DNA of 64,000 nt, from the NCBI GenBank assembly GCA_965214705.1, contig CBDCCI010000002.1, forward strand, positions 2,176,001 through 2,240,000. The letters are read 5' to 3'. This stretch comes from Alphaproteobacteria bacterium. Lineage in GTDB: Bacteria > Pseudomonadota > Alphaproteobacteria > UBA828. The notes under the pieces were generated by a model. It made no database searches. It saw nothing but the letters and a program-made list of their open reading frames with translations, and was not told the DNA's origin. The translations under genes and the position numbers were made by a program. This document shows, one piece after another, positions 7,701 through 20,487 of the stretch (within the stretch, counting starts at the first letter, position 1; the number at the start of each line of letters is the position of its first letter).

Positions 7701-8685
7701 TTGCATCGACGCGGGCCTCAACCTCACCGAGGCTTGCGCGACCGCCAACTGCATCCAGGGCGTGTTCGAGAACCTGGAGTCCGATATCCCGCCCAACGCC
7801 GGCAGCTTCCGCCGCCTCGAGGTCAAGCTGCGCGAGGGCTGCGTCGTGGGCATCCCGCGCTTCCCGCATAGCTGCTCGCTCGCCACCACCAACATGGCGG
7901 ACGTGGTGGTGAACCTGGTGCAATCGGCCTTCACCCAGCTCGGGGACGGCCACGGGCTCGCCCAGGGCAATCTCTGCTTTTCCGCCGGTATGGGCGTGGT
8001 CTCAGGCAGGGACTGGCGGCGCGGCGGGGCCGAGTACATCAACCAGGTGTATCTGATGGGCGGCGGCGGACCGGCGCTGCCCGAGCACGACGGCATGATC
8101 TACCTGCTGACGCCGGGGGGCTGCGGATTGCTGCATCGGGACAGCATCGAGTTCGACGAGCAGCGCTTTCCCATGCTGATTCGCTCGCAGCGGCTCCTCC
8201 CTGATTCGGGCGGCGCGGGGCGCAGGCGGGGTGGGCCTGCGACCGAGGTGATCTTCGGTCCGCGCCGCGACCAGATGACCGTGAGCATCATGGGCGGCGG
8301 GACGATCAACCCGCCCAGAGGCGTGCGCGGCGGCAGCGACGCCAACCACGCCTACCACGGCCACCTGCATGCCGACGGCTCCGAGGACTCGGTTCCGAAC
8401 GGCGTGATGCTGGCACTGGCGCCCGGCGAGTTCGTGCGCTCGGTGGATAACGGCGGCAGCGGCTATGGCGACCCGCTCACCCGCGAGACTGGGCGCGTGC
8501 TGGAAGACGTGGTCGAGGGCTACGTGACCCTAGACCATGCGGAGGCGGTGTATGGCGTGAGGCTCACCGGGCGAGCGGAAGAGGGCACGCTCGCCGTCGA
8601 CGAGTCCGGCACCGCGGAGCACCGCGCCGCATTGGCCGGCGGCGCGGTGCCGCCGCGTAGCGTCAGCCGGTTCGGGCAAGGGTAG
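4762..8685 (+). CDS. Fused hydantoinase A/B (5-oxoprolinase-like) ATP-dependent amidohydrolase
   Basis: N-terminal DTGGTFTD, DAGGTTFDV, VGPESAGADPGPACYG (HyuA part); C-terminal RTARS..I...RDFSCAI, HNDPYDGNSH, GGSGYGDP (HyuB part); 1307 aa. Confidence 0.92.
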   Translation: MPYRIAVDTGGTFTDVVVAAPGGALTVGKAPSTPLRSADGVKAGLADAARSMGIPVEALIGEADVLIYGTTWATNAIVTGTTAKTALLVTEGFPDILVYRQGGKLHPFELHIDPLKPYVPRRLTAEIPERVTAEGEVERALDEDAARAALTRLARQGVEAVAVCLLWSIKNPTHEERLGALIEETMPGVPYTLSHRLNPILREYPRASSAAIDASLKPLMQRHLRALRDDLGAAGFAGELLVSTVSGGLMHVEDVADRPIFMVKSGPAMAPLAGIAYAEAEGLGRDVLVVDAGGTTFDVSMVRDGAVKYTRETWLGGLFSGHNLGLSSVDVRSVGAGGGSIAWIDPGGLMRVGPESAGADPGPACYGRGGNAATVTDAAVVLGYIDPDAFLGGRMKLDVAAARCAVDALAEQLDMTIEETASAILTLASETMIKAIEEITVNEGVNPRESVLVAGGGAAGLNILPIASALGCERVLLPKTAGALSACGAQYSDIVAEFSASHYVRTDHWDEAAVNETLGDIDARMEAFADGLRTRGIARFRKDHFVDARYLNQQWETEIAMPAPRFAGRGAVNALIGHFHEVHERLYGVKEENGLLECLNWKGRLTAFLDRPQPATAAEGGARSGPPVPRRTTQAFFGDAGFLETPVFEGATLAAGDAIAGPAIIEEPTTTVVVYPRTRARVSSGANYVLEPAEETARAPAEGAEELDPVQVAIMANRIDAILREMTGVVMRTARSAVIGQSRDFSCAIVTADNELLAAAEGIPAHIYGAHLQTRTMCRVHPDFREGDAYLHNDPYDGNSHAADWSIIVPVFCDGEHLFNVTVKGHQADCGDSIPTTYTPRARDVYEEGALIFPCVRVQRDFRDNEDIVRMCRRRIRVPDQWYGDYLSQLGAARIGERRLKAFAAKHGVDQMRRFIEAWFDYAERRADHAIRRLPRGTLVNKGMHDPVQPFLPESLEITVKVGIDPDEGRITVDLRDNPDCIDAGLNLTEACATANCIQGVFENLESDIPPNAGSFRRLEVKLREGCVVGIPRFPHSCSLATTNMADVVVNLVQSAFTQLGDGHGLAQGNLCFSAGMGVVSGRDWRRGGAEYINQVYLMGGGGPALPEHDGMIYLLTPGGCGLLHRDSIEFDEQRFPMLIRSQRLLPDSGGAGRRRGGPATEVIFGPRRDQMTVSIMGGGTINPPRGVRGGSDANHAYHGHLHADGSEDSVPNGVMLALAPGEFVRSVDNGGSGYGDPLTRETGRVLEDVVEGYVTLDHAEAVYGVRLTGRAEEGTLAVDESGTAEHRAALAGGAVPPRSVSRFGQG

Positions 8686-8768
8686 GCGCCCAGCCGTCCT
8701 CCATCGGCTTACGTTGTCTTGCCCGAACCAACTGGGTGGACATCTGCACTGTCGTTCTTGGCGGGAAT

Positions 8769-8876
8769 GTCTCACCACGGTCATGGTCTGCGCGGCGCTG
8801 TCCGGCCTGCAGGGAGGGACAGGCGGGCAGCGGGTCGAGCGCCAGGGAGGGGCGCAGACCATGACCGTGGTGAGAC
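8769..8876. repeat. 108-bp MITE-like element with perfect 25-bp terminal inverted repeats
   Basis: GTCTCACCACGGTCATGGTCTGCGC (8769-8793) is the exact reverse complement of 8852-8876. Intergenic; no TSD recognised. Confidence 0.6.
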
Positions 8877-9417
8877 GTACGGGTCGAGGGCGTCACGCGG
8901 CCTATGCTCCCGCTGTCGAGAGAAGGAGCGCCGCGAGAATGAGGCACACGCCCGTGAGCCAAGCCGCGAATACGGAATACGTCCACATCATCGAGGCGGC
9001 TCCTCACGGCAGAAGCAGATAATTGCCGTTGCAATCAGCCATTTGCTCCGCCTAAACGAGACGGGTACTCCGAACTCACTCATGGGCTTCTCACCTCACA
9101 ACCGGTGCCGTTCTCGAGAATCGAGACCGCGCGTCAGCATCGCAGTGTCAAAGTCGACGGAGACTGGGATCACTGGATAGAGAGAAAGTAGATATAAATT
9201 GGCAAGAAATGTACACAGAATCAATATACTTTGTTGATCTTGAGCTATATCCGTATTGACATATCTAACAACCTAATACTTTGTAATAACAAGATAAAAC
9301 ATATTAGTATATAAATTACATCTTAGAAACTGGCCCGACCAATGCGAAATTGATATGGAGTGGAAAGACCAATGCTCTCTTTCAAACAAGAGAGCATACC
9401 ATCATGGCATATCAACC

Positions 9418-9422
9418 ATGTT
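9418..9422 (+). repeat. Left copy of the 5-bp direct repeat ATGTT (probable TSD of the IS at 13360-15903)
   Basis: ATGTT abuts the 3' end of intron A1 here and recurs at 20483-20487 abutting the 3' end of intron A2. Confidence 0.75.
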
Positions 9423-9498
9423 ATCGCGGTAGGGAACCGGGTTGCCCCGGTCCCCCCGCACAGATCCGGACGGGCGCTGTTCGCATCCGGCTCCTCCC

Positions 9499-12400
9499 TC
9501 AGGTCCTGACGACAAGCCGCTGGTTCGGCCACGGATGACGGATGCTGGCCTTGGGCCAGTGGGCAGCAGTGAGGGGATTGATATCCTCCCACGCGGTGCG
9601 GTCCCGTTGGGACCTTCGCCGCAGGGCACGCATGAGCAGCCGTTTGCATTGGTGCACGAACCGCACCAGATAGCGGCCGCTCCCGGGTACGCCGTAGTAG
9701 TTGAGCCAGCCGTCGATGACCCTTCCCAGCCACTTCGCTGTCTCGTGCCGGTTGTCGTGCCAGCGCTTGCGCAGCCTTTCCGCGATCCCCCGCAGAGTGC
9801 GGTTGACCCGTTTCCGGGATGGCCTGCGGCCGACCCTGAACCGTCCCTTCCTCGACTGGTCGCAGAAGTGCGTCATGCCAAGGAAGTCGAACGTCTCCGG
9901 CTTGCCCTGCCCCCGTGTCCGGCGGTTCGCTTTCGCGTAGCGGCCGAATTCGATGAGCCGGGTCTTGCCCGGATGCAGTTCCAGTCCGTACTGGGCCAGC
10001 CTCTCGCCGAGGTCCCGGAGGAAACGCTTCGCGTCGCCCTCGTGCTGGAAGCCGCACACAAAATCATCGGCGTATCGCACGATGATTGTGTCGCCTCCTG
10101 CCGTCCGTTTGCGCCATGTGTTGTGGAACCAGTCGTCGAGCACGTAATGCAGGTAAACGTTGGCGAGGCAGGGTGAGATTATCCCACCCTGCGGAACGCC
10201 CCTGCCGGTGTCCGTCCAGTCGGTCCCTTCCATGACGCCGGCGTTCAGCCACTTGACGATCAGCCGCATGACCCGCGTGTCTCCGATGCGCCTTTCGAGC
10301 ATCCCGACCAGGTGGTCCCGCCCGAGATTGTCGAAGAACCCGCGGATGTCGGCGTCAACGACCCAGTTGACCTTCCGCCGTTCCATTCCAACCGCCACGG
10401 CGTCGAGCGCGTTATGCGTCCCCCGCCCCGGCCGGAAGCCGTAGCTGAAGCCGAGGAACTCCGTCTCGTAGATCGGCACCAGAATCGTATCCGTCACCGC
10501 CCGCTGGAGTATCTTGTCCTCCAGCGAGGCGATGCCGAGCGGTCGTTGTCCCCCGTCCTCTTTGGGTATGTAGACCCGCCGCGACGGCGGCGCCCGATAC
10601 GCCCCCCTGTGCACACGCCCGTGCAGGTCGACCAAGCGATCTTCCAGCCCGTCGGCGTATGCCTCCCACGTGACGCCGTCCACCCCCGCTGCCGCGTCCT
10701 TTCTCAGCGAATGGTACGCGTCGCGCAGGCAGTCAACCGTCACATGGTGGAGGAGCGCCACGAGACACTCATCCGGGTTCCTCTTTGCAGCCTGTCGTAT
10801 CCGGTCGGCCGCCTGTGACTCGCTTCCCCGCTTCTGCGCGCGGCGCGAGCTTTGGCCTTTCGGATTGCCCTTGGGTCCGCCCCTTCGCTCCCCCGGCTCC
10901 GCCGGCCCCGAGGGGCCGTTGTTCGCCGGCTTCATTGCTGTCGGGTCGGAGGAGGCGCCCCGCGAGGCTAGCCTCCGTCCGCCGCTCAAACGGCCCGTAC
11001 GGTTTTCCCGTAAGCCGCTTTCACAAAGGTGTCTCAACGAAGGTTCAAGGACGGAACCAGTGAGATCAGGCGAACAAGCCCGTATTCGTCGATCAGCTTG
11101 CGCTCCGGCAACTGTTTCCAGCCAGCGTTGCGCCAGCGCTTGCGACGATGCGACCAGAGCCGCCGCACGATCCAGCCGTCAAGCTGGTGGAAGAGCCCGC
11201 GGACGTGGGCCTTGCAATAGTATTGGCCCCATCCCCGAATGATCGGGTTGATCTCGTCAATCAGCTCCTGCGTGCTGACAGGAGCCTTGCGCCGGGTACG
11301 CTGGCGAATCTGGTCCTTGAAGTGCCGGATGGATTTCTCACGCGGAACCGCGTAGCGCGCTCCCCCGCGAACCCCGCTCTTGATCTTGGAGGACGACAGC
11401 CGGAGAGGCCGCTCGCCCTGCTTGATCTTGTAGCCGAGGAACTCAAACCCGTGCCTGACATGGACAATGCGGGTCTTCCCGGCGTTGAGGGACACACCCA
11501 GCTTTGCCAGAATCCGCCTGGCCGTCTCCAGTGCTGCGCGGGCTTCCCCGCGTGTGCGGCACGTGATCAGCCAATCATCGGCGTATCGCGTTAGTCGATA
11601 GCCGCGACGACGCATTTCCCAATCGAACGGGGTCAGCAAGATATTGCTGAGCAGCGGTGAAACGATGCCGCCCTGCGGAGTGCCCTGTTCGGTCGGCAGC
11701 CTCTTACCGTCGGCCACCACCCCGGCCGTGAGCATCTGCCTGAGCAGACCTAATACCCGGCCATCCGAGACTCGCTGGTTGACGAGTTCGAGGAGCTTTT
11801 CGTGGTCCACGGACCCGAAAAAGTCTTTCAAATCCGCATCGAGAACCCACTCGTTGCCCTCGTCCAGTTCCCTCCATATCTTGCGTAACGCTCCATGGGC
11901 AGACCTTCCTTGCCGGTACCCGTAGTTGGCATCGTCGAACACCGGCTCGAAGATCGGTTCCAGCCGGTTCAGCAGCGCCTGCTGGCACACCCGGTCGTAG
12001 ATTGTCGGGATGCCGAGCGGGCGGAACTTCCCCGGCTGGCCCGCCTTGGGGATCAGGCATTGGAGAACCGGCTGCGGGTGATACTCACCGTCCCGCAACT
12101 CCCGGTGCAGGCGATCGAGATTTGCATCCAGCGATGCCTCGAACGCCGCTAAATCCTCTCCGTCCACGCCACCGGCACCCCGGTTGCGCTTCACCTTTTC
12201 CCAGGCCACCTCAAGGTTCTTCCGCTTGTACACCTTGTCCACCAGTGAGTGGACCTTCCTGTCACCCGCCGGGTTGATCCAGTCGATGAGTCTCCTCGGG
12301 CCATGATGTCCGGGTCTTTCGCTCAAGGAACTTGTCCGCGTCATGGTCCTTACTCACTCATCGCTGTCTCTCGCCGACCACCTCTGCCAACCGACTTCCC

Positions 12401-13001
12401 CGGCCCACACGGCCGCCGCTCGCGCGGTCACCCGGCTTTCGCCGGGCTTCAGGTACTATTCGGTTGTCCGATTGCTCGCCGCGCATCCTTTCCCATTTCG
12501 CCTTTCGGCTTATAGGGTCCGTTATCCCGGTGCCACCCGGGAACGCGGCGAGCCCTCCTGGGGTCACGTCCAGATCTTCCGTACCGTGCCGCTCGCAAAC
12601 ACCTTGGTGCGACGGGTGGGTAAGAACGCCTTCGCCGCCATAGTGCCGGCTCGACCTTGCCCCGTCTTTGGCCGACCGATTCATCATGGGGTGGCCCCCT
12701 CGATTACGGCCCGGTACTTCTCCGCAAGCCCTTCAGATTCCACCTCGCGGTGGACACCCTGCCTTCCGGTTGTCTTTCGACAGTGGACCAACTTAGCTCC
12801 TCCCTTGGCTGTCTCCGCCGTTTCCGGCTTCGTGCCCGTTTAGAGTTTCGCTTATCGGCTCACTCCGGCCAGTGAGGAATTACCCCCACTTTTGGATATG
12901 GCGCCCCTTACCCGAGCGCCAGTGGGACTTGAACCCACCTGATCTGGGCGCTGCCCAGCACACACTATGGGCGAATCTGATTTCTTCGAACCGTACATCA
13001 T
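9499..13001 (-). CDS. Group II intron A reverse transcriptase/maturase, join(13001..12964,10939..9499), 492 aa after intron B splicing
   Basis: ALLHHVT, AAAGVDG, RPLGIASLEDK, PQGGIISPCLANVYLHY, RYADDF, FDFLGMTH. No C-terminal HNH endonuclease domain. Frame is restored when 10940-12963 is removed. Confidence 0.88.
10940..12963 (-). mobile_element. Group II intron B (2024 bp) nested inside intron A copy 1
   Basis: 5' GTGTG at 12963. Domain V GAAAGCGGCTTACGGGAAAACCGTACGGGCCGTTTG and 3' end CCGACCCGAC at 10940. Removing it rejoins CCCATAGT|AGCAATGAAG exactly as in copy 2. Confidence 0.93.
11034..12344 (-). CDS. Group II intron B reverse transcriptase/maturase (no endonuclease domain)
   Basis: HSLVDKVY, RGAGGVDG, RPLGIPTIYDR, GTPQGGIVSPLLSNI, RYADDW, FEFLGY, maturase X motif INPIIRGWGQYY. 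Confidence 0.93.
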   Translation of the reverse strand: MTRTSSLSERPGHHGPRRLIDWINPAGDRKVHSLVDKVYKRKNLEVAWEKVKRNRGAGGVDGEDLAAFEASLDANLDRLHRELRDGEYHPQPVLQCLIPKAGQPGKFRPLGIPTIYDRVCQQALLNRLEPIFEPVFDDANYGYRQGRSAHGALRKIWRELDEGNEWVLDADLKDFFGSVDHEKLLELVNQRVSDGRVLGLLRQMLTAGVVADGKRLPTEQGTPQGGIVSPLLSNILLTPFDWEMRRRGYRLTRYADDWLITCRTRGEARAALETARRILAKLGVSLNAGKTRIVHVRHGFEFLGYKIKQGERPLRLSSSKIKSGVRGGARYAVPREKSIRHFKDQIRQRTRRKAPVSTQELIDEINPIIRGWGQYYCKAHVRGLFHQLDGWIVRRLWSHRRKRWRNAGWKQLPERKLIDEYGLVRLISLVPSLNLR

Positions 13002-13359
13002 TGGGTTGCGGTATAGCTCCTTTCCTTAGCGGCCCCGCACGACCGCGGGGCAGTTCGAAGACCTCCCAGGTCCCGGTGGACTGCTTCGGCACGTGCCATG
13101 GTTCTTAGACCCCGCAGAGCCCCTGCTCGCCTCACCAAAACGGCTCACAGGGTGTTGCCTTCGGCTAATCTGACAGCCTCGGCACCCCGGTTGAATCAGG
13201 TTTCGTGGCTCAATAGCCCGGCCCGTGCCTGCCGCTTCCCAACGCTTCGCCTGCCGCCTCGCGACGACCGGCGCATGGGTCGCGGAGAAAGTGGTCGGTT
13301 CACCTCTCTTTCTGCCGGGACTTCCACCCGGCGACATTCCACCAGTTTGCCTGGCGCAC

Positions 13360-15749
13360 CAGACTTCCTGACCTCTGCTGATTTGGGGTGATGCGGTTTG
13401 CGTGGATTCCGGGGCTGCGGCGACCTCGTAGACCATGCGCAGTTCGGTCCCGGGGAAGACGGTTTCGGTGGCGTTGAGCTCGCTCAGGAGGGCATCGATC
13501 TGGCGGTCGCAGGCGTCATTTGCGAGGCCGAGAATATGGACCCGGAGAACGCCGTTGGCGGGGTCCGGCAGGATGTCGGCATCGGCGGCCAAGAGAGCCT
13601 GAAGCAGTTTCCGGGGATGAGGCTTCTTGCCTTGTCCCTGCATGACGGGGAGCATCATGCGGGTTTCGGCGCGGTAGGCGATCATGCGGATGACGTCGAG
13701 GAGGAGACGGTCGCGTGAGGGCAGGGCATCGAGCTGTCGGTCTTCGTCGAGGTCGCCGGCCCGACAGTGCTTCGGCACGTTCCTGCGGCTGGCCTTGGCG
13801 ATCTCGAGGGCGCCCTCGAGGTCCCTGACCTCGCTCCTGAGCTGCGCCGTCGGCCTCTTTTTCCTGGCCGCGCCGGCGATCCGGTTGCGCAGGCGGGCGA
13901 GCCGGCGTTCGGCGCTGCGGATTGCCTTGTCGTAGGCCCGCCGGAGCGGGTTGACGACCATGGTGTCGGGAGCGAGCGGCTCGAGTTGGTGGGTCGGCAG
14001 GGCGTCGAGGTTGAACTCGTCGCGCATGTACTTGAAGAAGTTTTCCTGCGACCAGCGCGAGACCATGGCGCCTGCGGCCTCGCCCATCGGTTTGTGCGGA
14101 TCGGTGACGATGAAGGGGATCTGGCGGCCGTTGTCCAGCAGGCGGCGGATCTGGCGCACCCTGAAGCCGTTCGGCAACGTCACCGGCTTTTCGGCCAGCC
14201 GCAAGGCGGCGGTGCCGCTCGTCGCCGGTCCGTGAATAGGAACGGTCGTCGCGCTGAAGTCCTCGACCGGCCAATCCTCGCCGCTGAAGTTCTTGTGCCA
14301 GGTCAGGCAAGCGATGCCGCGCCTCGCCAGCCGGCGGAACAGCTCCGGGCTCCAGCCCTCGCGGTCGAAGACCAGGGTGAGCGCGGGGTGGCCGGGCGCC
14401 TGTGCGGTCAGGTCCGGCGCCTGAGCATCGACGATCCCGAGCTCCTGCAGCGCCGCCACCACGTCGGCTTCGATGGCGGCGACCATCTTCGGATCCAGCG
14501 TCTTGTGCAGACAGAGCAGGGGTTTGCCGCCCAGGGCATTGATCCAGTAGCTGGCGCTGGCCGGCAGGCACAGCTTCTGGCGCGAGACGAAGTGTTTCGG
14601 CAGGCGTCCCTTGCGGCCGGCGTAGACCTTGACGTGCCCGTCGACGGCCAGCGTCGCCCAGAGCTCCGGCTCGTCGGCCTGCCAGCGCCTGGCAAGGGCG
14701 AGCTGCCAGGCCCGCACGCCGGCCTCGTCGTTGGCGATCAGCGCGATCTTGCGCCGCAGCGTCTTGACCTCGGGGCAGCGGTCGAGGCCGAGAATGGCGC
14801 CCCATTCGCCCGGCGGCCGGTAGCGCAGGCTCTCGGGATTGCGCACCCGCGCCAAGCTCATGAAGGCCAGGAAGAGCAGGATCGTGTTCAGGCCGTAATA
14901 GCCCTTCGGCAGCGGTGGCAGGACCTCGGTCGCGGCCAGCAGGCCTTCCTTGAGCAGAGCCGGCAGGGCGGTGAGAACGCCACCTGAGCGCACCCCGCGG
15001 GCGGCGCTGCCGAACTGCGGATCGACCGGCCCCGCCTGCCCGCAGCTGGCCAGCACCCGGCCCGAAACATCGCAGGTCGCGCGCCCCATCGGCGCCTGCC
15101 GGTCGCGCCGGTCGCGTGCGGTGCGATCGGTCTGCGGCCCGGCGTCGATGGGGCCTGGTGAGCGGCTCTGCGCCGGTTCCGTCAGGGGCGGCGCTTCCGG
15201 TCGTACCGTCTCGGACCCGGGGGCGCCGGCACCGTCATCGTCGACGCGCCGCTCAACCGCATCGGGCGGTGGACCCTGCGCCGAACCCCCGGGCTCCTGC
15301 GCCGCCTTGCCGATCAGCCCCTGCCGGCGCCACTTGTTGACCGACGCCACCGACACGCCCAGAACCCGGGCCACCGCAGAGCCGCTCAGGCCCGCTTCCA
15401 GCAACGCTGTCGCCTTCTCGGCCAGTTCCGGTGTGAACACCGACGGCCCGCGACCGCGCCGGGGTTTCAGAAACGCCGCTTCACCCTCGGCCAGGTAGCG
15501 CCGCCGCGCGCGCAGCACGGTCGCGCGCGAGACACCGAACGCGTCGACCAGATCCCGTTGCGCGATGTCGCTGACCACCGCGAGCCGGCCAATCCGCATG
15601 AGCATGGCGGCACGGTCATCGGCGGGGTGGCTGTCGAACGGAACGAGATTGGAGAAGTAGGTGAAGGTGTCGTCGGAGATCAGGACGGCGAAGCAGCTGT
15701 TGCCGATCGGAACCGCTTCTGGGGGGCAAATCGGGAGGGTGATGGGCAT
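13360..15749 (-). CDS. Putative DDE transposase, 796 aa; stop codon TG|A split by intron A1 (the A is at 9422)
   Basis: Two HTH-like segments (GVSRATVLRARR; SAVARVLGVSVASVNKW). Acidic motifs VDGH, FDREG, RWSQENFFKY. ORF ends ...RGQEV inside the IR. Confidence 0.82.
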
Positions 15750-15903
15750 GGCTCAGGCCGCCGAATCTGCGTCACCATAAAATAGCAGATTCCGCCGTGC
15801 CGATCAACGAAAACCTGGCCTGAAACGGGAAGAAAGCGGGGAATTTCAACGAGTTCCCGACGCACCGATCCGCATCGCCAAGGCCATGAGGTCAGGAAGT
15901 CTG
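13360..15903 (-). mobile_element. Insertion sequence (2544 bp), large DDE transposase, family not assigned
   Basis: Perfect 16-bp terminal IRs CAGACTTCCTGACCTC (13360-13375; 15888-15903). Single transposase ORF. ATGTT repeats lie outside the flanking introns. Confidence 0.85.
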
Positions 15904-17602
15904 GTGCGCCAGGCAAACTGGTGGAATGTCGCCGGGTGGAAGTCCCGGCAGAAAGAGAGGTGAACCGACCACTTTCTCCGCGACCCATGCGCCGGTCGTC
16001 GCGAGGCGGCAGGCGAAGCGTTGGGAAGCGGCAGGCACGGGCCGGGCTATTGAGCCACGAAACCTGATTCAACCGGGGTGCCGAGGCTGTCAGATTAGCC
16101 GAAGGCAACACCCTGTGAGCCGTTTTGGTGAGGCGAGCAGGGGCTCTGCGGGGTCTAAGAACCATGGCACGTGCCGAAGCAGTCCACCGGGACCTGGGAG
16201 GTCTTCGAACTGCCCCGCGGTCGTGCGGGGCCGCTAAGGAAAGGAGCTATACCGCAACCCAATGATGTACGGTTCGAAGAAATCAGATTCGCCCATAGTA
16301 GCAATGAAGCCGGCGAACAACGGCCCCTCGGGGCCGGCGGAGCCGGGGGAGCGAAGGGGCGGACCCAAGGGCAATCCGAAAGGCCAAAGCTCGCGCCGCG
16401 CGCAGAAGCGGGGAAGCGAGTCACAGGCGGCCGACCGGATACGACAGGCTGCAAAGAGGAACCCGGATGAGTGTCTCGTGGCGCTCCTCCACCATGTGAC
16501 GGTTGACTGCCTGCGCGACGCGTACCATTCGCTGAGAAAGGACGCGGCAGCGGGGGTGGACGGCGTCACGTGGGAGGCATACGCCGACGGGCTGGAAGAT
16601 CGCTTGGTCGACCTGCACGGGCGTGTGCACAGGGGGGCGTATCGGGCGCCGCCGTCGCGGCGGGTCTACATACCCAAAGAGGACGGGGGACAACGACCGC
16701 TCGGCATCGCCTCGCTGGAGGACAAGATACTCCAGCGGGCGGTGACGGATACGATTCTGGTGCCGATCTACGAGACGGAGTTCCTCGGCTTCAGCTACGG
16801 CTTCCGGCCGGGGCGGGGGACGCATAACGCGCTCGACGCCGTGGCGGTTGGAATGGAACGGCGGAAGGTCAACTGGGTCGTTGACGCCGACATCCGCGGG
16901 TTCTTCGACAATCTCGGGCGGGACCACCTGGTCGGGATGCTCGAAAGGCGCATCGGAGACACGCGGGTCATGCGGCTGATCGTCAAGTGGCTGAACGCCG
17001 GCGTCATGGAAGGGACCGACTGGACGGACACCGGCAGGGGCGTTCCGCAGGGTGGGATAATCTCACCCTGCCTCGCCAACGTTTACCTGCATTACGTGCT
17101 CGACGACTGGTTCCACAACACATGGCGCAAACGGACGGCAGGAGGCGACACAATCATCGTGCGATACGCCGATGATTTTGTGTGCGGCTTCCAGCACGAG
17201 GGCGACGCGAAGCGTTTCCTCCGGGACCTCGGCGAGAGGCTGGCCCAGTACGGACTGGAACTGCATCCGGGCAAGACCCGGCTCATCGAATTCGGCCGCT
17301 ACGCGAAAGCGAACCGCCGGACACGGGGGCAGGGCAAGCCGGAGACGTTCGACTTCCTTGGCATGACGCACTTGAACGAAGCCGCTACGCGGAGTTAGCG
17401 GCGTAGAGTTCATTCATTTCCGAGGCGTCGCGGGTGCCGTTTGTTCTGTGCGTTCGCTTCCCGGTTGCGTCAGTGGCGCTCCGCCCGTCGGGTGGCGGAT
17501 CCCCAGCAGCCTCCCGATCACCAGTGGTTAGCATCGACCCCTGCGACGGACCGTCGCCGGATCGGTCCGGCGGCGCGCCGTCGCGATCCAGGGAGATCGA
17601 TA

Positions 17603-18481
17603 ATGACCGGGACCGCGTGCGACACGAACACCGTCACCCCTCTTCGCCAGCGCATGGAGGAGCAGCTCCGCATCGCCAATCTGGCCGCGAGCACGTCCAA
17701 GGCCTACATCTGCGAGATCAAGAACCTGGCCAGGTACTACGACGCCTCGCCGGACGAGCTCGACGCCGAGCAGGTGCGCCAGTGGTACCTGGGGCGGATC
17801 GACAAGGGGCTCAGTCCGGGCACGACCAACGTCTCCTTCGCCGCGCTGAACTTCCTCTACATCGACACACTCGGCTGGCCTGACCATGTCGCCGGCCTGC
17901 GCTCCCGCAAGAAGCCCGGCAAGCTGCCGCGCTACATGTCGGAGCAGGAGGTCGAGCACCTCATCCTTGCGACACCCGACCTCCGCCACCGTGCTGCCAT
18001 TGTCACCGGCTATGGCGGCGGGCTCCGCATCTCCGAGACCTTGGCCATCAAGGTCGGCGACATCCTGTCGGAGAAGAAGCTGCTGCACATCCCCTCCGGC
18101 AAAGGCGGCACCGAGAGAATGGCACCGTTGCCGGACATCGTCATCCACTACTTGCGCGTCTACTACAGGAACATCTGGCCGCGTCCGACGAGCTGGCTCT
18201 TCTACGGCGTCTCGCTCGACAGGCCCATCGCAACGGAGACCTTGCAGGCCGCCTTCAGGAGGGCGCGCGACATTGCCGAGCTCGACCGCAGCTACACCTT
18301 CCATTGCCTGCGCCATTCGGCGGCGACCCATCTCCTCGAGCGCGGCGGCGATATCGAGGTGATCCGGGACATGCTCGGCCATCGAAGCGCGAACACGACC
18401 CGTCACTACGCCCGCGTCACCGGCAAGATGTTCGAGGGCCTCGACCACCCGATCTCAGGCTTCGCAGCGTTGCGCAACTGA
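17603..18481 (+). CDS. Tyrosine recombinase/integrase
   Basis: Catalytic set GLRISE (R), GKGG (K), HCLRH (HxxR), LGH, TRHY (Y). Confidence 0.92.
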   Translation: MTGTACDTNTVTPLRQRMEEQLRIANLAASTSKAYICEIKNLARYYDASPDELDAEQVRQWYLGRIDKGLSPGTTNVSFAALNFLYIDTLGWPDHVAGLRSRKKPGKLPRYMSEQEVEHLILATPDLRHRAAIVTGYGGGLRISETLAIKVGDILSEKKLLHIPSGKGGTERMAPLPDIVIHYLRVYYRNIWPRPTSWLFYGVSLDRPIATETLQAAFRRARDIAELDRSYTFHCLRHSAATHLLERGGDIEVIRDMLGHRSANTTRHYARVTGKMFEGLDHPISGFAALRN

Positions 18482-18487
18482 CGGCGC

Positions 18488-19729
18488 GTGGAGGCCGAAC
18501 GCGCGGGCGTGGCGGAGATCTTCCGCCGCGCCGGCGCCGCTTTCCGTGAGCGCCACAAAGGGCGCATCGACGCCGCCCGGCTCAAGGTCATGGGCGCCAT
18601 CGAGGCGTGCCGCACCGCCGTGCTCGGCGGCCACATGTACGCCTGCGAGGGCTGCGGGCGCGAGCATCCGCTCTTCAACTCCTGCCGCAACCGCCACTGC
18701 CCCACCTGCCAGGGTCTCGCCGCCAACCTCTGGAGCGAGGAGCGCGCCGGGGACATCCTGCCGGTGCCCTACTTCCATGTGGTCTTCACCCTGCCCAAGG
18801 AGGTTGCCGCCATTGCCTTCTGCAACCGCAGGGTGGTGTTCGACATCCTCTTCCGGGCCGTCGCCGAGACCCTGCGCACCATCGCCGCCGATCCCCGCCA
18901 CGGCGGCATGCGCATCGGCGGCACCGCGGTCCTCCATACCTGGGATCAGAAGCTCCGCTTCCACCCGCACCTGCACGTGGTCGTGCCCAACGCGGGCTTC
19001 GACGTAGACAGTGGCGAGTGGAAGACGGGGAGCACCACCTTCCTCGCCCCCGTCAAGGTCCTCGGCAGCCTGTTCCGCCGCCTCTTCCTCGAGGAGCTCG
19101 CCCGCGCCCACGGCCGGGGGGACCTGGAGTTCCACGGCACCGTCGCCCACCTCGCCAATCCCGGCGAGTTCCACGCCACGCTTGCCGCCGCCCGGGCCAG
19201 GGACTGGGTGGTCTACGCCAAGCGGCCCTTCCGCGGGCCTGAGCAGGTCTTCCGGTACCTCTCGCACTACACGCACAGGATCGCCATCTCCGACAGCCGC
19301 ATCGTCTCCTTCGACGGCGAGACGGTCTCCTTCCGCCACCGAAAGCCCAAGGCGCCGGGGCAGAGAAAGCCGCGCTACGGCATCGCCACCGTGAGCGCCG
19401 ACGAGTTCATCCGCCGCTTCCTGAGGCACGTCCTGCCGGACGGCATGCACCGCATTCGCTACTTCGGCATCCTCGCCAACGGCTGCCGCGCCAGCACGCT
19501 GGAGAGAGCACGCCAGGCTCTCGGCGCCCTCGGCTGCGCCGCCCCCGAGGGAAGCGTGGACGGCGCTCAGGCCGAGCCCGACGAAGAGCCCGAGATCGGC
19601 ACCGCGCCCGTGGCCTGCCCCCACTGCGGCGGCGTCATGCGCCTCGTCCGCGAAATCCGCCGCCGCCATGAGCCCCGCTCGACGCGCGGCCCGCCGGCGC
19701 TGCCGCCGACCCACAGGGGGAAACCGTGA
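18488..19729 (+). CDS. IS91-family transposase (Y2 HUH) with Zn-binding N-terminal domain
   Basis: CEGC...SCRNRHCPTCQ, YFHVVFTLP, HPHLH (HUH), YLSHY (YxxxY), HRIRYFG. Confidence 0.92.
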   Translation: MEAERAGVAEIFRRAGAAFRERHKGRIDAARLKVMGAIEACRTAVLGGHMYACEGCGREHPLFNSCRNRHCPTCQGLAANLWSEERAGDILPVPYFHVVFTLPKEVAAIAFCNRRVVFDILFRAVAETLRTIAADPRHGGMRIGGTAVLHTWDQKLRFHPHLHVVVPNAGFDVDSGEWKTGSTTFLAPVKVLGSLFRRLFLEELARAHGRGDLEFHGTVAHLANPGEFHATLAAARARDWVVYAKRPFRGPEQVFRYLSHYTHRIAISDSRIVSFDGETVSFRHRKPKAPGQRKPRYGIATVSADEFIRRFLRHVLPDGMHRIRYFGILANGCRASTLERARQALGALGCAAPEGSVDGAQAEPDEEPEIGTAPVACPHCGGVMRLVREIRRRHEPRSTRGPPALPPTHRGKP

Positions 19730-20482
19730 GACGGCCGCTCGCTTCGGCCCCGCGCAACGGCGCCAAAGCGCCGACGCACGACCGAACCTGTCTCCGCTTG
19801 AGCCGGGCTGACAGCCCTCGGCTCACACCCCGCTCAGTCCTCGCAGCGTGCGCCCGCATGCCTGCCGAAAGACCGGCGCGAGCGTCGATTTTATGCGCAA
19901 CTCTGCTGCCGGTGGATGCCGCCTGACGCTGACATCAGCGCACTTTCCACATAGCTCAACTTCGCCTCTCGTGGCCCGCGGCTTCGTTCAAAAGGGTTGG
20001 GCAGGCTCTCGAGAGAGAGCCTGCCCAACCCTTAACCTTCTGCGACCAGTCGAGGAAGGGACGGTTCAGGGTCGGCCGCAGGCCATCCCGGAAACGGGTC
20101 AACCGCACTCTGCGGGGGATCGCGGAAAGGCTGCGCAAGCGCTGGCACGACAACCGGCACGAGACAGCGAAGTGGCTGGGAAGGGTCATCGACGGCTGGC
20201 TCAACTACTACGGCGTACCCGGGAGCGGCCGCTATCTGGTGCGGTTCGTGCACCAATGCAAACGGCTGCTCATGCGTGCCCTGCGGCGAAGGTCCCAACG
20301 GGACCGCACCGCGTGGGAGGATATCAATCCCCTCACTGCTGCCCACTGGCCCAAGGCCAGCATCCGTCATCCGTGGCCGAACCAGCGGCTTGTCGTCAGG
20401 ACCTGAGGGAGGAGCCGGATGCGAACAGCGCCCGTCCGGATCTGTGCGGGGGGACCGGGGCAACCCGGTTCCCTACCGCGAT

Positions 20483-20487
20483 ATGTT
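20483..20487 (+). repeat. Right copy of the ATGTT direct repeat
   Basis: Immediately follows the 3' end of intron A2; matches 9418-9422. Confidence 0.75.

Follow-up and report, generated by a model that had tools for sequence, protein, structure and literature searches.

How does an IS come to carry the same group II intron, facing outward, at both of its tips? The question is raised by a locus of Alphaproteobacteria bacterium (UBA828; GCA_965214705.1) on contig CBDCCI010000002.1, of which we analyzed positions 2,176,001-2,240,000 of the forward strand, a stretch of 64,000 nt referred to here as the window. At 9418-20487 of the window, a copy of ATGTT is followed by intron A on the minus strand, a 2544-bp IS, intron A on the plus strand and a second ATGTT (Table 1). 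The symmetry of this block is visible in three inverted repeats, each 100% identical: 12964-13375 versus 15888-16299 (412 nt, comprising the 16-bp IR and the first 396 nt of intron A), 9866-10939 versus 16300-17373 (1074 nt) and 9422-9868 versus 20037-20483 (447 nt). From left to right, the left outer junction (9418-9422/9423) reads ...CAACC ATGTT / ATCGCGG..., the left intron/IS junction (13359/13360) ...GGCGCAC / CAGACTTCCTGACCTC, the right IS/intron junction (15903/15904) GAGGTCAGGAAGTCTG / GTGCGCC and the right outer junction (20482/20483) ...CCGCGAT / ATGTT ACAGCG. These reads bear out the first-pass annotation, which had described a 2544-bp IS with perfect 16-bp IRs, abutted at both ends by intron 5' ends. 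Neither copy of intron A in the window is contiguous: the left one is interrupted by a second intron (intron B), the right one by an IS91-family element.

Table 1. Features of the capped IS locus, in positions of the window.
Feature	Positions	Strand	Remarks
Target-site duplication ATGTT, left copy, 5 bp	9418..9422	.	Sequence read
Intron A, left copy, 3' segment (intron positions 397-1913)	9423..10939	-	IEP ORF and domain V/VI
Domain V/VI of left intron A	9423-9495	-	
IEP ORF in left intron A	10935->9499	-	478 aa; RT and maturase X, without endonuclease domain
Intron B, nested in intron A	10940..12963	-	2024 bp
Intron A, left copy, 5' segment (positions 1-396)	12964..13359	-	
EBS2 and EBS1 of left intron A	13194-13200; 13167-13172	-	
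IS	13360..15903		2544 bp; IRL 13360-13375, IRR 15888-15903, perfect 16 bp
Transposase ORF	13361..15749	-	796 codons; N-terminal HTH domains and PF21804 Transposase_29
Intron A, right copy, 5' segment (positions 1-1470)	15904..17373	+	IEP ORF truncated by IS91-family insertion
EBS2 and EBS1 of right intron A	16063-16069; 16091-16096	+	
IS91-family element	17374..20036	+	Boundary ambiguous by 3 nt (CTT)
Intron A, right copy, 3' segment	20037..20482	+	Domain V/VI at 20410-20482
Target-site duplication ATGTT, right copy, 5 bp	20483..20487	.	First base is +1 (A) of right 3' exon

The element between the two introns carries the hallmarks of an IS, namely 16-bp IRs, 5-bp duplications (in four copies in this genome), a transposase and an empty site. 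Its transposase matches PF21804 (Transposase_29; 1.3e-105), while NCBIfam offers no more than a weak hit to the IS630 HTH (31.5 bits; cut-off 100). Among the 120 listed of 2294 matches, none gives a source name for the transposase homologues, and a search for the IS in 72,556 plasmids returned no match. The genome holds five copies of the IS and three MITE-like pairs. Ten of the 11 clean IS duplications, taken from this genome and from a Paracoccaceae MAG with related IS copies (G061), begin with A. The ATGTT repeat outside both introns had been taken to mark a clean IS insertion beneath them; the duplication agrees with this, and the predicted empty allele (...caacc ATGTT acagcg...) occurs uninterrupted in four of the 20 congeners searched. 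An alternative description of the IS ends, with a 17-bp IR and a 3-bp duplication, was rejected because a further IS copy lies in an AAATG duplication, where G instead of T adjoins the left IR. The duplications AACAT and AATTT of the related copies in G061 also speak against a 3-bp duplication.

Intron A has a length of 1913 nt (1470 + 446 - 3), and at all copies its boundaries are GTGCG...CGAT, which fit the conserved 5' GUGYG and 3' AY. The Rfam model for group II domains D1-D4 (RF02005) is matched over positions 1-225 of 225 with 154.2 bits (gathering threshold 49), at 13100-13324(-) and 15939-16163(+). Domain V/VI (RF00029) scores 34.2 bits (E 0.0012), under the gathering threshold of 40, with the hit located where expected at each 3' end. 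The IEP matches RVT_1 (1.8e-34), GIIM (2.1e-5) and TIGR04416 (339.6 bits; cut-off 300); no match to a nuclease domain was found in it, and just 29 residues extend beyond the Pfam GIIM match. EBS3 was not located in intron A, and no outward promoter was detected that would serve the right-hand copy. The lone uninterrupted copy of intron A in the genome is 1909 nt long owing to a 4-nt deletion, which frameshifts its IEP. As all copies in the genome are either interrupted or damaged, present-day activity would require that intron B be spliced out first.

The first-pass annotation had left room for 5' exons of intron A that are mostly unrelated to the IR elsewhere. Genome-wide, every one of the five copies that retain a 5' end lies against the IR GAGGTCAGGAAGTCTG, with the left IR used three times and the right IR twice; the sixth copy lacks its first 396 nt. 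EBS2 and EBS1 of intron A pair with 13 of the 14 terminal IR bases: EBS2 (CCUGAUU, intron positions 160-166) with -14..-8 in seven pairs and EBS1 (CAGAUU, 188-193) with -6..-1 in six. The IR thereby supplies IBS2 (GGUCAGG), one unpaired A and IBS1 (AGUCUG), and in the RF02005 consensus EBS2 and EBS1 fall in an internal loop and a terminal loop, respectively. The EBS1 pairing covaries with the target. In five intron subfamilies of the genome the hexamer of the EBS1 column pairs 6/6 with its own 5' exon, against one to four pairs in the twenty cross-combinations of hexamer and exon, with one exception of six. EBS2 pairing was not convincingly readable in the related subfamilies by manual reading. 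A homologous pair occurs in G061, where an intron of 87% identity, with EBS1 CAGACG, separates the tip of an IS of 57% identity from its AATTT duplication. In that MAG, 4 of 11 tips ending in CGTCTG (6/6 EBS1 match) are capped, compared to 1 of 42 tips ending in CGTGTG (5/6 match). That intron A targets the junction of IR tip and flank, leaving the IRs intact and finding two homing sites per IS, as had been suggested at first, is well supported by the shared junction of the five copies, the EBS/IBS pairing and its covariation, the empty allele and the homologous pair in G061.

Downstream of the tip, the +1 base of the 3' exon is A in all six copies of intron A. The genome contains 18 exact target sites, five of which are occupied; those followed by A are occupied in 5 of 14 cases, with nine free, and those followed by another base in none of four. 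Since those nine offer a suitable +1 base as well, either a target needs more than the 14-nt match and A, or the invasion was brief. The A at +1 could also reflect merely the target preference of the IS itself. In a congener with 241 such tips, a junction scan and an intron search both failed to detect intron A.

The position of the intron at the exact tip also affects the coding frame of the transposase. This frame has no stop inside the IS but ends in TG at the tip, where the first base of the flank completes TGA. At one end intron A splits this stop codon (TG/A); on the minus strand, the last base of the left ATGTT is both the +1 base (A) of the 3' exon of the left intron and the third base of the transposase stop. 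Unspliced, the frame reads TGG and continues for 111 codons into the intron, to 13026. At this transposase-distal end, the intron has the same orientation as the transposase gene, so that read-through transcription from that gene could express it; the stop would be regained on splicing. In IS870 of Agrobacterium the stop codon of the transposase is completed by the target, and the groEL intron of Azotobacter is inserted in a stop codon. The locus resembles both, the former in that TG and a flanking A make TGA and the latter in that the intron lies between G and A. A target-completed stop and an intron-split stop in one locus were not found in the literature searched.

We consider it highly probable that the IS inserted at ATGTT and that intron A then retrohomed in two independent events into the junctions between tip and duplication. 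A DDE-type IS of the Transposase_29 type would have entered the ATGTT site and duplicated it, after which the endonuclease-less intron A would have retrohomed twice, separately, presumably by replication-fork priming, at the two junctions of IS tip and duplicated target. The homing site would comprise the terminal 14 nt of the IR and the first base of the flank, which is always A. With two IRs that are inverted copies of each other, an inserted IS presents two such sites, one per strand, and the introns face outward, outside an intact IS. Intron B would later have homed into the left intron A, and the IS91-family element would have entered the right one. A singly capped copy of the IS (C3:23898-26441), with an intron at its left tip and a bare right tip within a single AGCCT duplication, indicates that introns are added one tip at a time, between tip and duplication.

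The same singly capped copy bears on the idea that homologous recombination or gene conversion between IS copies distributed the capped tips, or that the intron-IS-intron block transposes as a unit, so that the copies would not stem from independent retrohoming; we regard this as improbable. The intron A copies across the genome are 99.7-100% identical, intron B occupies one and the same position in the left-end introns of two IS copies, and the introns lie inside the 5-bp duplication, which a composite unit would also show. However, the AGCCT duplication around one capped and one bare tip must have been made by a bare IS, the 3' ends of the intron bear no resemblance to the IR on which a transposase might act, and the 3' exon differs at each of the five junctions, all of which fall exactly at tip and duplication. 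Intron B, moreover, has a homing site of its own in A-like introns. The interiors of the introns may still have been converted, yet this leaves the junctions unexplained. An assembly artefact, in which 1.9-kb inverted repeats were wrongly joined around the IS and no single double-capped molecule exists, is harder still to credit. Almost the whole locus consists of multi-copy elements, and the lone public short contig over the left flank/intron junction reaches 27 nt into the intron, which does not bridge it. Nonetheless, the outer flanks are contiguous around a single ATGTT in four congeners, the same pentamer stands on both sides of the block, and its two intron A copies carry different nested insertions. 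A second double-capped IS with independent flanks (C3:2098295-2105300) has its own duplication AACTT and, again, different nested insertions. Although the genome contains 66 full-length copies of a 2.7-kb element, its assembly consists of 3 contigs and is free of N, which suggests that long reads were probably used. The reversed order of events, in which the IS entered two introns already standing head to head, or has a target preference for the 5' ends of introns, seems the most far-fetched. A copy of the IS in one congener (G012) appears to lie inside an A-like intron, so insertion of the IS into introns does seem to occur. Against this order, the empty alleles of the congeners contain neither intron nor IS, the duplication lies outside the introns instead of beside the IR, the genome contains no head-to-head intron pair (0 found), and bare IS copies and MITE-like derivatives sit in ordinary AT-rich 5-bp duplications.

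Insertion of the IS followed by two retrohoming events has a close parallel in Sinorhizobium meliloti GR4, where the natural copies of RmInt2 are described as all located at the left or right IR of ISRm17 (Martinez-Rodriguez et al. 2014, PMC4615759; PMC5894124). Its authors state that such an IS offers two opposite-strand sites and tested retrohoming into an IR target, so RmInt2/ISRm17 is, as described there, the published proof of principle for IR-directed retrohoming (PMC4615759). On pRmeGR4d of GR4, a 1632-bp core encoding a 444-aa DDE_Tnp_1 transposase is framed by two RmInt2 copies as inverted arms of 1909 nt, so that one IS copy is doubly occupied there too; the first-pass annotation, which knew of no symmetric double occupation, has to be corrected on this point. 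The arrangement in the window is thus real but not unprecedented, being another IR-directed intron/IS pair. Both introns encode a reverse transcriptase/maturase without endonuclease, and the natural copies of both are confined to the two IRs of one IS. RmInt2, however, points into the IS and sits about 19 nt in from its tip (5' exon TAGCTAGTGCCCRTCCATA); it therefore lies within the IS, parting tip from body. Intron A, by contrast, reads away from an IS that it leaves intact, joins that IS at its very last base and draws its +1 base from the duplicated target. The intron lineages also differ (RF01999 for RmInt2, RF02005 for intron A; IEP identity 35-36%). A regular-expression search of the intron A IEP gave no match to the C-terminal motif LX3AX3PXLF[V/A]HW described for IEPs of class D, to which RmInt1 and RmInt2 belong (PMC4615759). 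The IS families are distinct as well, DDE_Tnp_1/DUF772 in the ISRm17 system and Transposase_29 here. RmInt1 likewise uses a multi-copy IS, ISRm2011-2 (IS630 family), as homing site; the cited account describes one site within each IS and does not place it at the IRs or the tip (PMC5894124). IStrons, in which a group I intron is fused to an IS200/IS605-type transposon, are described as single chimeric elements that move as DNA by means of the transposase (PMC4227781), whereas intron and IS are separate here, each with its own mechanism.

The locus thus provides a second, independent case of a group II intron that uses the IRs of an IS as a doubled homing site, in a geometry that is the mirror image of RmInt2/ISRm17. 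Since both intron lineage and IS family differ, the strategy appears to have arisen more than once. An intron outside an intact IS could neither hitch-hike on the IS nor block it by separating tip from body; intron A must re-home after each transposition. We would infer a 'partnership' of intron and transposon with restraint, given the occupation of 5 of 18 sites and the congener with 241 tips and no intron A. One possibility that goes further, and that we consider rather doubtful, is that the intron A lineage co-evolved with the IS family as an extreme-tip specialist, with reciprocal regulatory coupling beyond mere parasitism. If so, the preference of the IS for A-N3-T would provide the TG/A stop and the +1 base of the intron at both ends, each transposition would create two fresh homing sites, and the C-terminus of the transposase would depend on splicing (796 aa spliced, 907 aa unspliced). 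The system offers a natural test bed, with 18 identical sites here and 241 in the intron-free congener, tip variants in G061 that match or mismatch EBS1, and a stop codon that is present only after splicing. For annotation, the interleaving of IS ends, intron ends and duplications means that automated IS and intron callers will mis-set boundaries.

The nested insertions add a further layer. Intron B (GTGTG...GAC ends; 436-aa RT/maturase) splits the left intron A at position 396/397, 4 nt upstream of the IEP start codon of intron A. A-like introns contain a homing site for it: in the same genome it also occurs immediately ahead of position 397 in a relative of 73% identity and immediately behind position 396 in one of 69% identity. 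Nested group II introns (twintrons) have been described in cyanobacteria and in Methanosarcina; intron B within intron A is a twintron as well, similar to these in its one fixed position within intron A and A-like introns, and represents a side feature of the locus. The right intron A is split at about position 1470 by the 2663-bp IS91-family element, which encodes a tyrosine recombinase (17441-18481) and an IS91 Y2 transposase (18488-19729) of the HUH type (NF033538, 382.8 bits against a cut-off of 125; Y2_Tnp, 3.3e-54) and is present in 66 full-length copies in the genome.

The double-capped structure is real. Three perfect inverted-repeat pairs in the window (12964–13375 with 15888–16299, 9866–10939 with 16300–17373 and 9422–9868 with 20037–20483), together with the sequence read, give the order described in the first-pass annotation: a 2544-bp Transposase_29-type insertion sequence (IS) that carries an outward-facing copy of one 1913-nt group II intron (intron A) at each tip. 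The GTGCG 5′ ends of both copies adjoin the terminal inverted repeats (IRs) without any spacer. To that first reading we add that both intron A copies are discontinuous. The left one is split by a second group II intron (intron B), which encodes a 436-aa RT/maturase (TIGR04416, 383.8 bits), and the right one by an IS91-family element with a tyrosine recombinase upstream of its Y2 transposase (NF033538, 382.8 bits). The latter element has 66 full-length and 62 partial matches of at least 95% identity in the 7.9-Mb genome, an unusually large expansion.

Coordinates of the double-capped locus (window positions) and of the related small elements elsewhere in the genome (contig positions)
Feature	Position	Strand	Remarks
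Left flank ...CAACC, then ATGTT	9418-9422		
Intron A, left copy	9423-13359	minus	
Intron B	10940-12963		2024 bp; splits left intron A at position 396/397
IS	13360-15903		perfect 16-bp IRs CAGACTTCCTGACCTC and GAGGTCAGGAAGTCTG
Intron A, right copy	15904-20482	plus	
IS91-family element	17374-20036		2663 bp; splits right intron A near position 1470
ATGTT	20483-20487		followed by right flank ACAGCG...
MITE-like derivative	C3:590416-590652		~250 bp, IS-type IR tips; duplication AGTCT
MITE-like derivative	C3:3022310-3022546		~250 bp, IS-type IR tips; duplication CAATG
MITE-like derivative	C1:4118918-4119165		~250 bp, IS-type IR tips; duplication AACTT

The genome is assembled into three contigs (7.92 Mb, 67% G+C, zero N), and the window corresponds to C3:2176001–2240000. 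The empty allele, for which a search in relatives had been proposed, is present in four of the 20 congeneric genomes searched (G017, G006, G008 and G001), where one ATGTT copy alone separates the two flanks. Combined with a second double-capped locus, this is a strong argument against misassembly. None of the listed short contigs from public sequencing runs spans a junction with 31 nt on each side, in a comparison that covered the left side of the locus only (window 8000–10900). Two runs from another organism contain intron A at 100% identity, beside a different flank that is missing from the genome under study. Within an imperfect 44-nt inverted repeat (80%) at window 8750–8895, contig depth in the public runs rises to 10–50 times that of the surroundings (~8770–8870), and loose ends occur at 8770 and at 8807. 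The region looks like a small dispersed repeat.

The IS transposase comprises 796 codons, with N-terminal HTH domains and a Transposase_29 domain (Pfam PF21804, 1.3e-105). Homologues are numerous in metagenomes (2294 matches among 8000 candidates scored), and ten full-coverage homologues among the matches listed are 78–96% identical, with lengths of 776–797 aa. Neither the IS DNA nor the transposase protein has a match among 72,556 plasmids, and profile search and these plasmids place the IS in no named IS family. Five IS copies are present in the genome. Its ends could alternatively be read as a 17-bp IR with a 3-bp TGT duplication, as the first-pass annotation had noted. The empty site cannot separate the two readings because both predict an identical string. 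An intron-free copy (C3:563094–565628, 93.7% identical) with the duplication AAATG can, as it has G instead of T beside its left IR; this copy and the duplications of the other copies rule out the alternative and leave a 16-bp IR with a 5-bp duplication. Among 11 clean duplications, A is the first base in ten and T the last base in nine. This tally takes in four IS copies of the genome, the three MITE-like derivatives and four copies from a Paracoccaceae MAG (G061); a copy with tandem left ends and two G061 copies, whose flanks are unequal by an offset or one mismatch, were left out.

Intron A matches the group II model RF02005 (D1-D4-6) with 154 bits for both window copies, while the domain V/VI model RF00029 scores 34 bits at both 3′ ends, under its threshold of 40. 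The intron-encoded protein (IEP), of 478 aa, combines an RT with a maturase domain (TIGR04416, 339.6 bits). It lacks an endonuclease domain, as no nuclease domain was matched and the Pfam GIIM match ends just 29 residues before the C-terminus. In the sole uninterrupted copy (1909 nt), the IEP is frameshifted by a 4-nt deletion. A promoter scan of the IS returned no sigma-70-like sites and is thus uninformative on the expression of the right-hand copy. Intron B is represented by 11 full-length and 20 partial matches of at least 95% identity, including C3:92749–94772 and one from C3:1610004 onward. Its fixed site lies 4 nt before the start codon of the IEP, in intron A as well as in A-like introns of 69–73% identity to it. 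Intron B forms twintrons, homing to the domain IV region of introns from a different family. For the two copies with an intact intron B, splicing out of intron B would be required before an intact intron A RNA could be regenerated.

The proposal that intron A targets the IS tip itself is well supported by the copy junctions, by EBS pairing and by EBS1 covariation, and intron A very probably retrohomes to the tip junction. Rather than having unrelated 5′ exons, all five intron A copies with a retained 5′ end adjoin an IR (three left, two right); the sixth, whose end lies at C1:1699510, is missing the first 396 nt. Mapping of the IS copies, another suggestion of the first-pass annotation, yielded bare, single-capped and double-capped copies. 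Both tips are capped in the copy at C3:2098295–2105300, which has its own duplication AACTT, while at C3:23898–26441 the left tip alone is capped, within an AGCCT duplication. Such copies, each with its own duplication, indicate that insertion proceeds one tip at a time and exactly at the boundary between tip and duplication. EBS2 (CCUGAUU, intron 160–166) pairs with positions −14 to −8 of the 5′ exon and EBS1 (CAGAUU, 188–193) with positions −6 to −1; they are located in an internal loop and a terminal loop that are variable in the RF02005 consensus. In five intron subfamilies of the genome, the hexamer in the EBS1 alignment columns forms 6/6 pairs with the 5′ exon of its own intron, while the 20 cross-combinations give one to four pairs, save one with six. 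Covariation of EBS2 in related subfamilies, inspected by eye, is unconvincing. The 3′ exon starts with A in all six intron A copies. The exact 14-nt target occurs at 18 sites, of which five are occupied, nine are free with A at +1 and four are free with another +1 base. The three MITE-like derivatives all lack the intron, even though +1 is A at four of their six tips. Contig C3 shows a weak GC skew, with its minimum close to 0 and its maximum close to 1.88 Mb; taken at face value, the skew offers no more than a hint that all three capped IS copies have one intron co-directional with the fork and that the two extra caps lie on the opposite strand.

Insertion at the left tip also affects the end of the transposase gene. 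Within the IS its frame meets no stop codon and runs out at TG on the left tip (window 13360–13362, completed by 9422), which becomes TGA only where the adjoining target base is A. After in-silico intron removal, this TG and the first flank base A form TGA at all three capped left tips. With the intron present, TGG replaces the stop and the frame extends by 111 codons. The AAATG copy reads TGC instead and its frame extends ~100 codons into the flank. The transposase of the G061 relative does have a stop codon of its own, located 37 nt inside the IS; a target-completed stop is therefore not general to the IS family.

G061 is the sole other genome recovered by a scan for the tip/intron junction in one genome per species, and two degenerate forms of the junction pattern gave no matches in metagenome contigs. 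It harbors 21 copies of an IS with a transposase 57–58% identical to that of the window IS, with the IR tip GAGGTCAGGACGTGTG and the duplications AACAT and AATTT. One tip is followed by GTGCGCCAGGCTAA, ~5 kb of other inserted elements, the rest of the intron and the matching AATTT. This intron is 84–87% identical to intron A and has CAGACG as EBS1. Tips ending in CGTCTG, which pair 6/6 with this EBS1, are capped in four of 11 cases, and CGTGTG tips (5/6) in one of 42. The sole AAGTCTG tip is capped by a degenerate copy (L001), with no transposase within 1.27 kb upstream. These counts cover 54 tips; one more capped CGTGTG tip, without the preceding A, was left out. Between the two genomes, the change from A to C at exon position −6 is matched by U to G in EBS1, and there are signs that EBS1 and tip co-vary. 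The congener G012 holds 241 exact 15-nt IR tips of the type studied here (e.g., L088, L090, L092), a massive expansion of the IS, and neither the junction scan nor an intron search found intron A in it. The IS thus spreads in the absence of the intron, and the arrival of intron A in the genome under study looks recent. Its copies there share 99.7–100% identity, and an older IS copy that has been interrupted is no exception. At ~733–742 kb on contig C8 of G012, the relationship appears reversed, with the IS inside an A-like intron.

The same principle has been described before, with experimental tests, for a different intron and IS. Martinez-Rodriguez et al. 2014 (PMC4615759) describe RmInt2 of Sinorhizobium meliloti GR4 as an endonuclease-less class D intron of which every copy lies within ISRm17 IRs. 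With these IRs, each IS offers a pair of sites that lie on opposite strands relative to replication, and retrohoming into the IR target was demonstrated (PMC4615759; both points recur in the review PMC5894124). In the GR4 replicons examined, pRmeGR4d carries two RmInt2 copies as inverted arms of 1909 nt, separated by a 1632-bp core with the gene for a DDE_Tnp_1 transposase of 444 aa. A published genome thus already contained a doubly occupied IS, and symmetric double occupation, of which the first-pass annotation knew no described case, is not novel. The geometry differs, however: RmInt2 faces inward with the outer ~19 nt of the IR as its 5′ exon and hence lies inside the IS, whereas intron A faces outward at the exact tip. 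The introns also fall into different Rfam families (that of RmInt2 taken from a separate search), their IEPs are 35–36% identical and the class D motif is absent from intron A, which on these sequence criteria is not a member of the RmInt2 class. RF02005 gave no matches on two GR4 plasmids, a result of low weight as control genomes likewise gave none. The new features are an intron lineage and an IS family that are both unrelated to the known pair, a geometry that mirrors it, with the intron pointing outward from the very tip, and a target duplication that supplies the transposase stop codon as well as the +1 base. Further literature searches found no description of an intron inserted at the tip junction or stop codon of an IS.

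Two further loci contain paired introns. L007 (G039:C18:509514–513981) is a 900-nt perfect inverted duplication with a pair of outward-facing introns from a related subfamily (GAGCGCC...), each preceded by 293 nt of an apparent IS6-type transposase 3′ fragment (family assigned by eye from the translated ORF), and looks like a palindromic rearrangement rather than IR targeting. At L003 and L019 (G013:C2:2311640–2320684), two copies of an A-like intron, 73% identical to intron A, lie inverted, ~6 kb apart, with 5′ exons that match exactly over 40 nt or more, possibly a further example of an intron on both arms of an inverted repeat.
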